Below, piece by piece: positions 4,588 to 9,066 of a DNA stretch of 32,000 nucleotides. Origin of the DNA: Marinicrinis lubricantis (GTDB taxonomy: Bacteria > Bacillota > Bacilli > Paenibacillales > KCTC-33676). The position numbers and the translations under genes are program-made. The stretch lies in the NCBI RefSeq assembly GCF_965137935.1, contig NZ_CBCSCT010000001.1; one strand, 5' to 3'. The stretch's first letter is position 1, and each line of letters begins with the position of its first letter. The notes under the pieces were generated by a model. That model did no database searches, was not told the origin of the DNA, and saw only the letters and a list, made by a program, of their open reading frames with translations.

Positions 4588-5370
4588 ATGAATCTATTAT
4601 CAAAAACACGAAGATTGAACAAGCTGCTTCAAAAAGCGGCAGGAAGTGCCGTGAATTTTAATGAAATGGCTGAGGTGCTGCAGGATACGATCCGTTCTAA
4701 CGTTTATGTGATCAGCCGCAGAGGGAAGATTTTAGGGTATTCGATTGAAGACGAAAAAAGCTTTTACGAATTAGCAAATATCGTGACAGAAGAAAGCCGG
4801 TTGTCTCCCAGGTACAATGATATGCTGATGTCGATCAAAGAAACGGCGCATAATCAAGAGCTTCGCCAGTTTCTGCATTCTGATCTTGACGGGTTGAGCG
4901 CGGTCGTTAGTGATCAGCATTTAACCGTCATTCCGATTGTAGGGGCGGGTAAAAGACAAGGGACGTTGGTGCTCCAACGCCGAGATGAGCCGTTCATCGA
5001 AGACGATTTAATATTATCGGAATATGGCTCGACCATCATAGCGATGGAAATCTTGCGCGAGAAGACGGAAGAAATTGAGAAAGAAGCGAGAAACAAGGCC
5101 ATTGTGCAAGTTGCTGTCAATTCATTGTCTTACAGCGAGACAGAAGCGGTTGAACATATTTTCGAGGAACTGAATGGACAAGAAGGAATGCTCGTTGCCA
5201 GTAAAATAGCCGACCGAGCGGGAATCACTCGTTCGGTCATTGTCAATGCGCTGAGAAAACTGGAGAGTGCTGGAGTTGTCGAGACGAAATCTTTGGGTAT
5301 GAAGGGCACTTACATTCGGATTTTGAACGCGCAGCTCATGGAAGAATTTCATAAAAACAAAGAACACTAA
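4588..5370 (+). CDS. codY: GTP/BCAA-sensing global transcriptional repressor CodY
   Basis: 260 aa with an N-terminal GAF-like region (LLSKTRRLNKLLQ) and a C-terminal winged HTH (ASKIADRAGITRSVIVNALRKLESAGVVE). The stop codon TAA at 5368-5370 lies inside the left copy of the transposon target duplication. Confidence 0.96.
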   Translation: MNLLSKTRRLNKLLQKAAGSAVNFNEMAEVLQDTIRSNVYVISRRGKILGYSIEDEKSFYELANIVTEESRLSPRYNDMLMSIKETAHNQELRQFLHSDLDGLSAVVSDQHLTVIPIVGAGKRQGTLVLQRRDEPFIEDDLILSEYGSTIIAMEILREKTEEIEKEARNKAIVQVAVNSLSYSETEAVEHIFEELNGQEGMLVASKIADRAGITRSVIVNALRKLESAGVVETKSLGMKGTYIRILNAQLMEEFHKNKEH

Positions 5371-5372
5371 CG
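5367..5372. repeat. Target-site duplication, left copy (CTAACG)
   Basis: CTAACG directly abuts the element terminus TGTT... at 5373, and an identical hexamer abuts the other terminus at 8371-8376. If the terminal CA is counted as flank, the repeat reads CACTAACG (8 bp) on both sides. Confidence 0.85.
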
Positions 5373-5444
5373 TGTTACTGCTAACGCATAATGTCCGGAG
5401 ATTGATGGTGTATGTTGTCCTGCTATTGACGGTTAATCTGACCG
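5373..5444. repeat. Terminal inverted repeat, gene-distal end, with two sub-repeats (outer 5373-5398, inner 5413-5444)
   Basis: The sequence is TGTTACTGCTAACGCATAATGTCCGGAGATTGATGGTGTATGTTGTCCTGCTATTGACGGTTAATCTGACCG. Outer and inner units share the pattern TGTT..GCTA..TAAT.T..CCG. The whole block matches the other end in inverted orientation. Confidence 0.8.
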
Positions 5445-5460
5445 ATTCTTCATATATGAA

Positions 5461-5485
5461 AGGGAGAATTATGATAATTCTCCCT
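5461..5485. other. Perfect 11-bp stem / 3-nt loop hairpin overlapping the ATPase stop codon
   Basis: AGGGAGAATTA-TGA-TAATTCTCCCT. The - strand stop codon (TAA, complement of 5469-5471) lies in the stem. There is no clean U-tract on either strand (+: GAATGACG; -: TTCATATATG), so a terminator role is uncertain. Confidence 0.5.
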
Positions 5486-6275
5486 GAATGACGCGTTTAA
5501 CCATATGATCATCGATGATGCGGTGTTTGTTCTGAGCCCCATAGATTAAACAATGAGTGCATACTTTGTTGATTAGCCTAGCTGCTCCGCTAGAGAATCG
5601 ATAGATGTCATCGATGGCTCCATCGGTAAAGATATCCCGGTCTGCACCAGCATAAGTCATATGTCTCTCGATGTAGGCTCCTGTTTGAGCCCGGTCATAG
5701 TGCGGAAGTTTGCATTGTAGATCGATGCGTTGACGAATCGCGGCGTAGGCTTGTAGATTGATGCGATCCCACAGTTCGCTTTGCCCGACCAGGATGAGAG
5801 CCATTGGGCTTTGGGCATCCATCTTAAAATTCAGTAAAAAGCGAACTTCCTCCAGCATCTCCCGGTCCAAAAGATGACTCTCATCCACGACCACAACGGG
5901 TTGCAGTCCATGAATTCCCCGCATGAGCTCGATCTCCCGATGCAGCTGACGCTTCGCATCCCCACGATAAAACTTCGACTCACAACCGAGTTGTTCCAGC
6001 AGCCCCTTGTAGAAATGCCGCGGTGTCAGTTTTGAATCTGACAGATAGAGCACCTTGAACTTCGCAGGATCCAGTTCTTCTGCAAACCGCCGAATCGTTG
6101 TCGTCTTTCCGGTGCCGCAGTCTCCGGTCACAACCGCAAACCATTGCCGTTCTGCCGCATATTCTAACCGTCCCAGCGTCTCCTCCAAAATGACCGACTC
6201 ATACAACTCGCTTGGCGGGACATCTCTGGAGAACGGTGAACGGCTAAGATCGTAGAATGCCTCAAACATCGCCAT
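5469..6275 (-). CDS. Transposition helper AAA+ ATPase, ExeA/TniB-like (AAA_22 class), functional analogue of IstB/MuB
   Basis: 268 aa with an N-terminal FYDLSRSPFSRDVPPSELYES motif (ExeA/GspA-like FGL..PF signature). Walker A is VTGDCGTGKTTTIRRF and Walker B is VVVVDESHLL. It lacks the IstB-type GPPGxGKTHLA motif. The start overlaps the transposase stop by 14 nt, and AAGGTAAGGTGA lies just upstream. Confidence 0.85.
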   Translation of the reverse strand: MAMFEAFYDLSRSPFSRDVPPSELYESVILEETLGRLEYAAERQWFAVVTGDCGTGKTTTIRRFAEELDPAKFKVLYLSDSKLTPRHFYKGLLEQLGCESKFYRGDAKRQLHREIELMRGIHGLQPVVVVDESHLLDREMLEEVRFLLNFKMDAQSPMALILVGQSELWDRINLQAYAAIRQRIDLQCKLPHYDRAQTGAYIERHMTYAGADRDIFTDGAIDDIYRFSSGAARLINKVCTHCLIYGAQNKHRIIDDHMVKRVIQGELS

Positions 6276-7614
6276 TCACCTTACCTTTCTTACGGTAGCT
6301 GACGGCCGGCGCTTGCTCGGAGCGGCGCCCGTGACTCTGTACTTCGGCAGCACTTAGCAGCCTTGACGAATCTGCTGGTACAGGTTGAAGATGGTCCGGC
6401 AGTGGAGGACGTTTTCCGGCACGTTCACCGATTACGAGTTCTTTTACCTTCCACGGTTCGTGGCCTTCGTATTCGATCGTCAATTCGGTGATGTCCGCCG
6501 GGTCATACACGACATCCACGGTACATCCGATGAACGGAAGCCCCACTTCATATTTGCGATCCAAGAAGCTAATGCACCCGGTTTTGTCGACCTTGCGGGT
6601 TTCGCAATGAAGGAATGCATTGGCGAGTATCTCCGGTTCCACAAACCGAAGCGCCTTCTTGTCACTGCGAAAGGCGGTTTCGGGGCTACGTTTGTTCTCA
6701 AGTGCTGAATGCGGCTTGTTCTGGTAGCATTCCGAGAGCCAAACTCCGAACAACTCATTCAGGCGGTCAAGCGTCTTTGGTTTTTCAAGTGCTGCTTCGC
6801 TAAGGAAAGAATCCACCACGCGGTTAAACCGTTCAACCTTCCCAGTGGCCTCTGGCGAGTATGGCTTAGCAAACAGAAGGCGAATGCCAAGCTTGGAGCA
6901 CGTTCGGGTCATCCACTTGGTTCGATACTGCCTCCCGTTGTCGAAGTACACGGCTTCCGGAACACCGTACTTCTGAATGGCCTTTCGGAAACAGTCCTCG
7001 ACGATCGTCTTATCCATGACCGGGTAAAACTCACCATGCAGTACAAATCTCGTCGCATCGTCGATGAAGGTAACGAGAAACACTTGCTTCATCGCTCCGC
7101 CCGGTCCAATGGGCAGATACGGACCGTACTTCAAGTCCGAGTGCCATAGGCGATTGCGGTGCGGCTGTTGGAATCGCCGAGCCGCTACACCAGAGTTTGC
7201 ATACATTCGCATATGTCTGGTGCTGTAACCACGTTCCGTTAGCTTCTCTTGAAGCGTGCTCCGTTTGACTTGGCCCGGTTGGACGCGACCTTCCCATTCC
7301 AGGATCTGAATGATCTGGGCGACACTGCGACTTGGCACTTCTCGCCGCAGCAAGATCGCTTGCTCCAAGACCTCCGGCGGAATGGTGGGGGCTACGGGTT
7401 GTTTCCCTTTGCTCTTCGGCTTTAACCCGCCAAAGCCATCTTGCCGGTAGGCTGCTAGATACCGTCGCAGCGTCCTCTCCGATATTCCGATTTGCTCGCA
7501 TATTCTTTGCTTGATTTCCTTTGCCTTTGCTGGGTCGAGCCCTTCTGTAAGCAATGGGGCAAGGAGCTGCACACGATCTGCAGCGATTTGCTCTGCTTTC
7601 TTCTGATCTTTCAT
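6262..7614 (-). CDS. DDE (rve/retroviral-integrase fold) transposase, IstA/TniA/Mu-like
   Basis: 450 aa with an N-terminal HTH (IGISERTLRRYLAAY) and a second HTH-like region (RSVAQIIQILEWEG). The candidate DDE triad is in WHSDLKY, VYFDNGRQY and ATGKVERFN. The C-terminal barrel-like segment is RKVDKTGCISFLDRKYEV...VDVVYDPADITELTIEY. RBS GAAGGTG lies 7 nt upstream of the ATG. Confidence 0.9.
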   Translation of the reverse strand: MKDQKKAEQIAADRVQLLAPLLTEGLDPAKAKEIKQRICEQIGISERTLRRYLAAYRQDGFGGLKPKSKGKQPVAPTIPPEVLEQAILLRREVPSRSVAQIIQILEWEGRVQPGQVKRSTLQEKLTERGYSTRHMRMYANSGVAARRFQQPHRNRLWHSDLKYGPYLPIGPGGAMKQVFLVTFIDDATRFVLHGEFYPVMDKTIVEDCFRKAIQKYGVPEAVYFDNGRQYRTKWMTRTCSKLGIRLLFAKPYSPEATGKVERFNRVVDSFLSEAALEKPKTLDRLNELFGVWLSECYQNKPHSALENKRSPETAFRSDKKALRFVEPEILANAFLHCETRKVDKTGCISFLDRKYEVGLPFIGCTVDVVYDPADITELTIEYEGHEPWKVKELVIGERAGKRPPLPDHLQPVPADSSRLLSAAEVQSHGRRSEQAPAVSYRKKGKVNGDV

Positions 7615-7656
7615 TCGTCTGCACCTTCTTCTGATAGATTCGTTTACGAGTCTATC

Positions 7657-8208
7657 TCAGAGAGCTTCGGACAAGAATGCAGAACGGGTATGTACCCACA
7701 AATTTGAATTCGCAACAGGTCGGACAACTCTTGCCAGCCAACCATCGGCATCACCGACATAACGTCCGAATCTATGGTGTGCAGCTTGTGAAGGTGCGGA
7801 CGATTCCTTCACAACATCTAGATAAAAGCGAATGGCGATGGACTCTAAGCACCCAAGCAAGTAGGTAGCCATAGAACAAAACCAACTCCGCCAACGGTAC
7901 AGTGTGGAGTTGTCTGCGGCAACATCTACTTCTGAGGGTTCAGTCGTGATGACATTCTCCACACATGCTGATTCGTAACGCTTGTAAGGTACGATGCAAT
8001 CCGGTAACTCATGATGAATCTTCCGGCAAGCCGTACATCGAAGTCTTCGAATGACCAATACGCTCTTTTCTCCCGTAGCATGTACAAGCTTCCGTTTTCG
8101 GCTCCCGATCACCGATAAACTCGCAATGCAGCAAGGACTAGGAACAATTTCTGCACACCTAACAAAAAACGCCGGGGATCTTCTCATCCAGCTCAAAATT
8201 TGATACAA
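7657..8208 (-). CDS. Zn-ribbon protein (DUF6431-like from memory), first gene of the element
   Basis: Motif IGSRKRKLVHATGEKSVLVIRRLRCTACRKIHHELPDCIVPYKRYE resembles the conserved CxxC...RRxRCxxC..H.ELPD..PYK.Y ribbon of DUF6431 proteins as I recall them. The first knuckle is atypical (SPCC). The track start at 8208 is TTG, the first ATG is at 8187, and neither has a good RBS. The stop lies 42 nt before the transposase ATG. Confidence 0.65.
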   Translation of the reverse strand: MYQILSWMRRSPAFFVRCAEIVPSPCCIASLSVIGSRKRKLVHATGEKSVLVIRRLRCTACRKIHHELPDCIVPYKRYESACVENVITTEPSEVDVAADNSTLYRWRSWFCSMATYLLGCLESIAIRFYLDVVKESSAPSQAAHHRFGRYVGDADGWLARVVRPVANSNLWVHTRSAFLSEAL

Positions 8209-8278
8209 TGATCATACGTTTTGTGAGGGGATGTCTCCAGTGAGCTTGCGCTAACAGGCTCACGCTATATGGAGGCAT
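8159..8278 (-). CDS. 39-codon upstream ORF overlapping the Zn-ribbon ORF start (leader ORF or the frameshifted true 5' part of that gene)
   Basis: ATG at 8278 is preceded by AAAAGGAAAAGG and lies about 20 nt downstream of the predicted promoter -10. It reads MPPYSVSLLAQAHWRHPLTKRMIIVSNFELDEKIPGVFC* and ends just after a T6 run (complement of 8164-8169). Removing one T would fuse it in frame to ...VRCAEIVPSPCC... of the Zn-ribbon ORF. Confidence 0.3.
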   Translation of the reverse strand: MPPYSVSLLAQAHWRHPLTKRMIIVSNFELDEKIPGVFC

Positions 8279-8298
8279 CCTTTTCCTTTTCTGTGATA

Positions 8299-8370
8299 CG
8301 GACATTATATTCGTCAATCCCTGGACAGGCAACACCGTCAGCTTTCGGGCATTATGCTTCAGCGTAAACA
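8299..8370. repeat. Terminal inverted repeat, promoter-proximal end, with two sub-repeats (inner 8299-8334, outer about 8345-8370)
   Basis: The reverse complement is TGTTTACGCTGAAGCATAATGCCCGAAAGCTGACGGTGTTGCCTGTCCAGGGATTGACGAATATAATGTCCG. This aligns with 5373-5444. Confidence 0.8.
8304..8332 (-). promoter_or_regulatory. Sigma-A-type promoter inside the terminal repeat, reading into the element genes
   Basis: The - strand reads TTGCCT (complement of 8327-8332), a 17-nt spacer GTCCAGGGATTGACGAA, then TATAAT (complement of 8304-8309). The -10 is perfect and the spacing correct. It sits within the inner sub-repeat of the end. Confidence 0.55.
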
Positions 8371-8376
8371 CTAACG
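8371..8376. repeat. Target-site duplication, right copy (CTAACG)
   Basis: It is identical to 5367-5372 and directly abuts the ...GTAAACA terminus. Confidence 0.85.
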
Positions 8377-8420
8377 ATTTGCTCTCAGCAAAGAATATAT
8401 TAATAAAGCATAACCGTTAT

Positions 8421-8457
8421 AAGAGGTCACTTCTCATAGGAAGGACCTCTTATTTTT
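8421..8457 (+). terminator. Rho-independent terminator, inferred original codY/operon terminator now displaced 3 kb from codY
   Basis: AAGAGGTC(A)CTTC - loop - GAAGGACCTCTT gives a stem of about 12 bp with one bulge, followed by ATTTTTGTG. With the element and one TSD copy removed it would lie about 50 nt after the codY stop. Confidence 0.8.
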
Positions 8458-8649: not shown

Positions 8650-9066
8650 GTGAACCAGGTGGATATGCTTCAATCGAAACACTTATCTTTAATTGAATCA
8701 ACAATTAATGCTTCTGCTATGAGACACAAGGTCATAGCGAATAACATCGCTAATGTCGATACGCCTAATTTCAAGCGGTCGGAAGTCTTATTTGAGGAGC
8801 TGTTGAATCAGGAAATGAATGGAGAGAGCAGTCTTGTAGGTACTCGAACCCATTCCAAGCATCTTCCCATTGGACCAGGACAGCCATATGGTATTGAAGC
8901 CACGATTCGGGTAGATGGATCGACATCGCTGAACAATAATCAAAACAATGTGGATATTGACTATGAGATGGCGTTATCCGCTAAAAATCAGCTGAAATAT
9001 AACGCATTGATCCAACAGATGAATCATGAATTGAAAATGTTCCGAACATCGATTGGAGGCAGGTAG
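8650..9066 (+). CDS. flgB: Flagellar basal-body rod protein FlgB
   Basis: It has the rod N-terminal motif VIANNIANVDTPNFKR and the C-terminal NQLKYNALIQQMN. The start is ambiguous (GTG 8650, GTG 8659 or ATG 8665); GGTGG at 8645-8649 favours GTG 8659. Confidence 0.93.
   Translation: MNQVDMLQSKHLSLIESTINASAMRHKVIANNIANVDTPNFKRSEVLFEELLNQEMNGESSLVGTRTHSKHLPIGPGQPYGIEATIRVDGSTSLNNNQNNVDIDYEMALSAKNQLKYNALIQQMNHELKMFRTSIGGR

Follow-up and report, generated by a model that had tools for sequence, protein, structure and literature searches.

The systems in which target choice, immunity and programmable insertion were worked out are DDE transposition systems that depend on an AAA+ ATPase, namely Mu, Tn7 and the CRISPR-associated transposons, IS21, Tn5053 and Tn552, and the Mu-transpos_C domain is typical of transposases that have such an ATPase as partner. 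Tn552 of Staphylococcus aureus duplicates 6–7 bp on insertion, and transposase sites are repeated within each of its ends; it carries a resolvase with its res site and bla cargo, and it targets plasmid res sites. Tn5053/Tn402 and Tn7 make 5-bp duplications and insert in a site- or structure-specific way, and canonical IS481 elements consist of a single gene in ~1 kb. Here we describe a mobile element found in a stretch of 32,000 nucleotides of Marinicrinis lubricantis (assembly GCF_965137935.1, contig NZ_CBCSCT010000001.1), the whole of which is called the window. Its positions 5373–8370 are occupied by a three-gene insertion sequence, intact and recently inserted, that encodes a zinc-ribbon protein of the Pfam family DUF6431 (called the ribbon from here on), a DDE transposase and an ExeA/GspA-type AAA+ ATPase. 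We consider it likely that this insertion sequence belongs to a family related to Tn552, IS481 and Tn6049, that its transposition is assisted by the ATPase, that the ribbon works as an end or promoter factor, and that the copy inserted almost at random beside codY. By homology, its closest characterised relatives are the transposition module of Tn552 and IS481, and, among named elements, the nearest is Tn6049 of Cupriavidus metallidurans CH34, which is also present in Pseudomonas aeruginosa pHS87a. A first-pass annotation of the same DNA had placed the system at 5469–8278, which covers the genes and leaves out part of the element.

The transposase motifs quoted in that annotation are all present (WHSD, YFDNG, GKVERFN, RKVDKTGCISF and VDVVYDPADITELTIEY), and Pfam recovers the domains it had named, with rve at 52.9 bits, the Mu-type C-terminal domain Mu-transpos_C at 28.3 bits, and the helix-turn-helix (HTH) domains HTH_28, HTH_29 and HTH_32. 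All of 33 diverse relatives keep the catalytic residues D160, D225 and E261, and the tail of the protein holds a short motif in which S417, R418 and L420 are invariant among 8 relatives. Its top NCBIfam match is IS481 (NF033577) with 188.3 bits, profile positions 15–280 of 284 corresponding to residues 34–311, which falls short of the profile cutoff of 224 bits; the other scores are 85 bits for ISNCY_2, 64 for IS3 and 54.4 for IS21 (NF033546), the last against a cutoff of 160. About 140 C-terminal residues, with the Mu-type domain, extend past the IS481 profile. Among solved structures the transposase gave weak sequence matches to the IS5376 transposase, which we take to be an IstA of the IS21 family, and its PGAP label is merely “DDE-type integrase/transposase/recombinase”.

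The ATPase, by homology, is of the ExeA type and not IstB-like, as the first-pass annotation had also held. The motifs FYDLSRSPF...LYES, GDCGTGKTT and VVVVDESHLL were confirmed, and Pfam gives AAA_22 with 81.9 bits and no match to IstB_IS21 at E ≤ 0.1. TIGR03015, the profile of the ExeA-like ATPase associated with XrtA/PEP-CTERM, aligns over the full length with 153 bits, under its cutoff of 324 bits, and Aeromonas ExeA is 31.5% identical to the window protein over residues 3–254. Walker A (G51–T58), Walker B (D131/E132), R183 and R233 are at least 97% conserved among 74 family ATPases, and we read R183 and R233 as the putative arginine finger and sensor 2. The top sequence matches among solved structures are Cdc6 (E = 7.5e-4), followed by MuB (8xvb, E = 1.4e-3).

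These affinities were also scored with hidden Markov models (HMMs) of the family, the reference proteins being TniA, TniB and TniQ of Tn402 from R751, A and B of Mu, p271 and p480 of Tn552 from pMW2, an IstB adjoining a Burkholderia relative, and Aeromonas ExeA. On the transposase HMM, Tn6049 TnpA scores 171 bits, Tn552 p480 106 and 52, TniA 26, MuA 7 and a partial IstA 3; the pMW2 reference for p480 is frameshifted, and its two fragments together span the whole transposase profile (~157 bits). On the ATPase HMM, against which the Tn402 TniB and Burkholderia IstB sequences were scored, ExeA reaches 172 bits, Tn6049 GspA 102, MuB 46, Tn552 p271 36, IstB 8.6 and TniB 5.7. The earlier placing of the ATPase in the AAA_22 class that includes TniB stands as to AAA_22. 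Its connection with TniB is a weak one, since Pfam gives TniB marginally (25.0 bits, slightly over the gathering cutoff of 22.4) and Tn402 TniB scores low. Outside transposons the closest ATPase homologues are those of ExeA/GspA type II secretion and of XrtA/PEP-CTERM; the window ATPase differs from ExeA in lacking the transmembrane and periplasmic half (268 vs 571 aa), in having no exeB neighbour and in being always coupled to a transposase. The nearest non-mobile homologues lie in an exopolysaccharide locus of a Rhodovulum plasmid (L098) and in the exeA-exeB locus of Aeromonas (L097), and one ATPase lineage thus serves both envelope-assembly systems and transposons.

As for the ends, imperfect inverted repeats of ~70 bp, TGTT...AACA, bound the element at 5373 and 8370. 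These boundaries agree with the draft contigs of relatives, several of which are exactly one element, with TGTT as first bases and AACA as last bases. The units of relatives assemble at 2995–3003 bp and many matches lie on such contigs, which is the signature of a collapsed repeat. The two full repeats of the right end are phased by 24 bp, and the same architecture is kept in 40 aligned ends of relatives, with the terminal TGTT, two full repeats aTGtCC-N5-tTGACGG ~24 bp apart, and a half-site. The hexamers of the sigma-70-like site TTGCCT-N17-TATAAT, as read off this 40-end alignment, are present in most left ends and absent from right ends, and this site probably acts as a promoter.

The likeness to Tn552 noted in the first-pass annotation has held up, given that p480 is a full-length homologue of the transposase, the end repeats are multiple and phased, and the duplications are of 6, apparently sometimes 7 bp; p271 is a detectable, distant homologue of the ATPase, and the two genes overlap in both elements. 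The window element differs in having neither a BinL-type recombinase nor cargo, with three genes only between its inverted repeats, and its ATPase is much nearer to ExeA than to p271. We know of no DUF6431 gene upstream of the transposition genes in Tn552. With IS481, besides the top curated transposase profile, the TGT...ACA termini and the mainly 6-bp duplications are shared; the differences are a transposase below the profile cutoff, the ~140 extra C-terminal residues, and three conserved genes in 3.0 kb. In line with this, IS481 members have mostly 6-bp duplications and TGT...ACA ends (PMC10045372), and a 7-bp target site is reported for a Tn552 derivative (PMC12486829).

A tblastn search with the ATPase led to a C. 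metallidurans plasmid locus with a Cys-rich 181-aa open reading frame (ORF), an IS481-family transposase, an AAA ATPase and a 90-aa ORF, and we take this locus to be Tn6049. Tn6049 resembles the window element in its size of ~3.5 kb, its multiple copies, its TGT...ACA ends, its small Cys-rich ORF, its IS481-like DDE transposase and its overlapping GspA/ExeA-like AAA_22 ATPase. It differs in that identity to the window proteins is ~30% in the transposase core and 22% in the ATPase, in that Pfam finds no DUF6431 in its small ORF and no Mu-transpos_C, and in the extra 90-aa ORF after the ATPase. On pHS87a, the inverted repeats of Tn6049 are of the form TGT... and its direct repeat measures 4 bp (PMC4739549), whereas that of the window element is of 6 bp; in strain CH34 it is present in 12 copies, and its authors called its ATPase gene gspA for similarity to secretion ATPases (PMC2864759). 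Judging from the 22–30% identity, the window element shares a superfamily with Tn6049 and is not Tn6049 itself.

Regarding spread, 2792 transposase homologues were found at E ≤ 1e-5 among the candidates scored, and 486 clusters (50% identity) came out of an exhaustive representative search at E ≤ 1e-30. When one genome per species was scanned, 442 stretches were returned, and the best 80 of these 442 loci, at 71–95% transposase identity, come from many genera of Bacillota. The genome loci were found from an alignment of 8 sequences and are all at least 71% identical, while the deeper relatives were reached by tblastn against plasmids. With the three window proteins as tblastn queries, the order ribbon–transposase–ATPase was found in every one of the 80 loci where the contig is long enough, with identities of 73–99% for the ATPase and 45–93% for the ribbon, and 8 of 8 transposase copies of a Brevibacillus relative (one genome, several assemblies) carry the trio. 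In this census the ribbon gene always accompanies the transposase–ATPase pair between the inverted repeats, in keeping with the first-pass annotation.

Moreover, the trio is kept at 25–37% transposase identity in Geobacillus pGS18, Thermobacillus, Clostridium tagluense and Burkholderia RPE67 (tblastn, plasmids). In pGS18 the element measures 3107 bp, has TGT...ACA ends and the duplication AAAATAC, and encodes DUF6431, an “IS481 family transposase” and an AAA ATPase; its transposase, 30% identical to that of the window, exceeds the IS481 cutoff with 249 bits, and 13 matches were obtained with the Geobacillus DUF6431 protein as query. In Thermobacillus the DUF6431 ORF is unannotated and the duplication is GCAACT, in C. 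tagluense the order is DUF6431, DDE transposase, AAA ATPase and a DUF6618 protein, and the Burkholderia protein matches DUF6431 at 33 bits. In the actinobacterial relatives (Kitasatospora and Mycobacterium), the first slot is taken by an HTH protein in place of DUF6431. A megablast of the element against the PLSDB plasmids gave no match. By homology, then, the family is large and mechanistically uncharacterised, abundant in Bacillota, with relatives in Actinomycetota and Pseudomonadota.

Many relatives measure 3.26–3.41 kb and have a fourth small ORF (79–105 aa) after the ATPase gene, which the window element lacks. Its coordinates are L080:6143-6397, L063:6143-6382, L100:4340-4657 and L093:4310-4582, it overlaps the ATPase stop codon in L080, L063 and L093, and its sequences are unrelated across lineages, being DUF6618 in C. 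tagluense and unnamed in the rest.

Whether the family had been catalogued was a question raised in the first-pass annotation, and we found that its sequences are already on record and that one branch bears a name: Tn6049 is a distant relative, and the DUF6431–DDE–AAA cassette itself is mentioned in a 2026 preprint. In Clostridium sp. JS66 this cassette is present in 15 copies, some of which border a deleted segment resembling a homologous-recombination deletion (bioRxiv 10.64898/2026.08.16.744336). In the literature searched, we found no mechanistic study of the family and nothing on the mechanism of Tn6049, and combinations of ExeA, IS481 and TniQ gave incidental mentions only. One of these is an “exeA-int” pair, an ExeA-like ATPase with an integrase-type gene, beside mcr-9 in Tn6230-related regions of Enterobacteriaceae (PMC13049778), and this pair may be a remnant of a related transposase–ATPase element.

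The target choice of the family was read from its relatives, in 65 loci of which the end profile located both boundaries. Of 36 independent insertions, 23 have a duplication of 6 bp, 11 one of 7 bp and 2 one of 5 bp, and these lengths fit 6 bp plus a chance one-base extension. The target signal across the same insertions is weak, roughly B-N-N-T-A-N, their flanks are unrelated, about half lie inside ORFs, and no second copy at codY was found among the 36 sites. Site-specific targeting of codY or of gene ends was rejected on these grounds, and the “precise insertion” at codY, which had been taken as a signature of targeting, is better described as a position that is tolerated and not targeted. 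Complete copies at the relatives' loci L003, L038, L040, L042, L055 and L077 lack a duplication shared by both flanks, as recombination between copies would produce; these unmatched flanks fit the deletion bordered by two copies in Clostridium sp. JS66.

The third component, the ribbon, matches DUF6431 (PF20020) with 104.3 bits against a gathering cutoff of 26.6, and its motifs RRLRCTACRKIHHELPDCIVPYKRY were confirmed. It has 960 homologues, the best 120 of the 960 being 58–100% identical over the full length; conservation spans the full length and includes C19/C20, C51-x2-C54, H58/H59 and an “STLxRWxxW” helix. Below threshold, Pfam gives Zn_ribbon_recom in 11 of 30 members, and also Zn_ribbon_ISL3, zf-IS66 and Zn_ribbon_IS1595, and the Burkholderia homologue gives HTH_28 and HTH_Tnp_ISL3, likewise below threshold. 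The top Foldseek matches, all non-significant, are zinc-ribbon domains of large serine integrases. Zinc-ribbon/HTH modules form the N-terminal part of ISL3, IS66 and IS1595 transposases and are found in large serine recombinases too, and from the whole we infer that the ribbon is a zinc-ribbon plus HTH-like DNA-binding factor. These sub-threshold signals, together with the actinobacterial swap to a plain HTH protein, favour a role like that of InsA/OrfA. By this analogy, the ribbon would most likely serve as a regulator or assembly factor of the InsA/OrfA kind, working on the ends or the promoter of its own element, rather than as a site-specific target selector. Its fast evolution is also compatible with a specificity or adaptor role, and with that of a regulator too.

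The proposal in the first-pass annotation that the ribbon is a TniQ-like target selector is not supported: homology to TniQ was negative by hhalign (0.06% probability for the DUF6431 family against Tn402 TniQ), by Pfam (no TniQ match in any of 30 DUF6431 members, even at E ≤ 1) and by Foldseek of the ribbon model against the PDB (nothing significant, and no TniQ or TnsD structure among the matches), and the 36 insertions have the weak target pattern given above. A ribbon–transposase fusion by readthrough or frameshift, an idea that came from an in-frame appearance in five distant relatives and in the window copy, was also discarded, since the gap modulo 3 is distributed as 24/24/18 over 66 distinct loci and in-frame stops are common. 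Apart from this, a conserved AAGGAAAAGG-ATG, that is, a ribosome-binding site with a start codon, lies ~90 bp inside the left end (window 8160–8290, element ~80–210), and in many relatives it opens a long ribbon form of 199–207 aa with the N-terminus MPP...TWSLYQxMSWLR. In the window copy, the conserved ATG opens a 39-aa ORF in another frame, and the ribbon frame there has stops (…NV*SLYQILSWMRR); because of these upstream stop codons, the window ribbon must start at the internal ATG (8187) or at the TTG. The leader ORF may be a remnant or may encode a peptide with a regulatory role.

Several explanations of the trio have to be weighed together. Tn5053/Tn402 with TniA, TniB and TniQ, and Tn7 with TnsB, TnsC and TnsD, join a DDE enzyme having a Mu-type C-terminal domain to an AAA+ regulator and a zinc-binding third protein, and the window trio, with its ATPase of the AAA_22 clan, has this same three-part architecture. 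It could therefore be a minimal TniA/TniB/TniQ-like system in which DUF6431 selects the target or adapts the ATPase to it, and its position at the codY stop codon would then be accounted for. Zinc fingers are joined to HTH folds in TniQ proteins too, the Pfam TniB match is barely over its cutoff, and the ribbon is the most divergent component, with its slot swapped for other DNA binders in other phyla, as expected of a specificity module. The reading is nevertheless unlikely in our view, because TniQ and the ribbon are unrelated by hhalign, Pfam and Foldseek, TniA and TniB score only 26 and 5.7 bits on the family HMMs, the ribbon gene comes first and not last in the gene order, the element has no recombinase gene, the duplication is of 6 and not 5 bp, and the 36 insertions have neither a shared flanking gene nor a strong motif, with codY used once. 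The window family thus differs from Tn5053 and Tn7 in lacking over 36 sites the target specificity of those systems. We hold as doubtful a further view, in which the trio would be a distinct, ancient ATPase-assisted lineage whose exchangeable first-gene DNA-recognition subunit sets end or target specificity with the ATPase, as an independent functional analogue of TniQ/TnsD; this subunit would be DUF6431 in Bacillota and Burkholderia, an HTH protein in Actinomycetota and another Cys-rich protein in Tn6049. If it were true, these transposon ATPases and their cellular counterparts, ExeA/GspA and the PEP-CTERM ATPases, would be of recent common origin.

It is very unlikely, on the other hand, that this is an ordinary IS481-type element for which the transposase alone suffices, the ATPase (“gspA”) and the ribbon being passenger or accessory genes with host-directed functions. 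That would agree with the top curated match, with the IS481-like ends and duplications, with the naming of the Tn6049 gene for secretion-ATPase similarity, and with the occurrence of ExeA-like ATPases in non-mobile exopolysaccharide and type II secretion loci; it does not agree with an ATPase that is the most conserved of the three proteins, that overlaps the transposase stop codon and that lacks the membrane and periplasmic half of ExeA, nor with a transposase–ATPase pair kept across Bacillota, Actinomycetota and Pseudomonadota down to 22–30% identity, nor with the ~140 residues including Mu-transpos_C beyond the IS481 profile. Mu (MuA/MuB) and IS21 (IstA/IstB) likewise consist of a DDE transposase and an AAA+ target-DNA activator, and MuB is the highest-scoring classical transposition ATPase on the family HMM, whereas MuA scores poorly and neither system has a DUF6431 partner. 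That the window element is an IS21-family member (istA/istB) with an extra small ORF is practically untenable: the overlapping transposase and ATPase genes, the multiple end repeats, the weak matches to the IS5376 transposase and the IS21 profile score of 54 bits can be cited for it, and membership is refuted by the missing IstB_IS21 match, by NF033546 at about a third of its cutoff and far below the 188 bits of IS481, and by the 8.6 and 3 bits of IstB and partial IstA, in agreement with the first-pass judgement that this is no classical IS21.

Under the preferred explanation of an ATPase-assisted, three-gene insertion sequence, the transposase would bind the phased end repeats through its N-terminal HTH domains and assemble a paired-end complex with its Mu-type C-terminal barrel. 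The ATPase would work like MuB, IstB or Tn552 p271, forming on DNA an ATP-dependent oligomer by which the target is captured and strand transfer activated, and it probably contacts the transposase at its conserved C-terminal tail. Expression of the operon would start from the left-end promoter, buried in putative transposase-binding sites, and for this reason binding of the transposase would shut off its own expression, as a form of autoregulation. DUF6431 would act at the ends or at the promoter in the manner of InsA/OrfA, and the position 2 bp past the codY stop would be a tolerated, near-random insertion. Some points weigh against this explanation. No ATPase proven to act in transposition is as near to that of the window as the cellular ExeA and PEP-CTERM ATPases are, and analogy is the sole basis for the roles given to the ATPase and the ribbon. 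The transposase has HTH domains of its own, so an end-binding ribbon could be redundant; the ribbon evolves fastest of the trio (45–93% identity vs 73–99% for the ATPase), and its AlphaFold models are poor (pLDDT, the model confidence score, 51 and 61) and have no significant fold match. There is no resolvase among the three genes of the element, and its pathway may be copy-out-paste-in, replicative or cut-and-paste.

The family is compact (3 kb), very abundant in Bacillota, reaches 12–15 copies per genome and has been linked to genome deletions, and it relies on a little-studied ExeA-type ATPase lineage and on DUF6431 as third protein. The function of the ribbon, once known, would give a role to a Pfam domain of unknown function and would tell whether a three-part transposition machine evolved independently of the TniQ systems. 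The generic labels given to these genes by annotators cause such elements to be missed as insertion sequences.

Table 1. Features of the three-gene element, in window positions.
Feature	Position	Strand	Description
Whole mobile element	5373–8370	genes on minus	2998 bp; inverted repeats and flanking direct repeats
Target-site duplication, copy 1 (CTAACG)	5367–5372		hexamer identical to copy 2
Target-site duplication, copy 2 (CTAACG)	8371–8376		perfect 6-bp direct repeat
Right end, downstream of ATPase gene	5373–5444		terminal TGTT; repeats TGTCC-N5-TTGAYGG at 5392–5408 and 5416–5432; third half-site
ExeA/GspA-type AAA+ ATPase gene	5469–6275	minus	268 aa; start overlaps end of transposase gene by 14 nt
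DDE transposase gene	6262–7614	minus	450 aa; N-terminal HTH domains, rve core, Mu-transpos_C (residues 334–378), tail motif
DUF6431 zinc-ribbon gene	7657–8187, or to 8208	minus	176 aa from ATG, or 183 aa from alternative TTG; Pfam
Left end, upstream of ribbon gene	8299–8370		terminal TGTT; repeats at element positions 20–36, 44–60 and 67–71
Candidate sigma-70-like promoter, TTGCCT-N17-TATAAT	8304–8332	minus	top-scoring promoter-like site of the region, 10/12 matches; inside left-end repeats

In the host genome, the neighbours of the element are codY (4588–5370, plus strand) on one side, with hslU upstream, and flgB (8650–9066, plus strand) on the other, and across the element segment the GC content rises to 50–55% and the GC skew is inverted. 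The element starts 2 bp after the codY stop codon TAA (5368–5370), which is part of the duplicated hexamer, and codY is therefore intact. A terminator-like hairpin of codY, seen by eye at 8413–8447 with a T run, lies ~40 bp past the far end of the element, and the insertion thus splits codY from its apparent terminator, with codY transcripts now entering the element antisense to the ATPase gene. Close to the right end, a perfect 12-bp inverted repeat (5461–5472 and 5474–5485) spans the ATPase stop codon.

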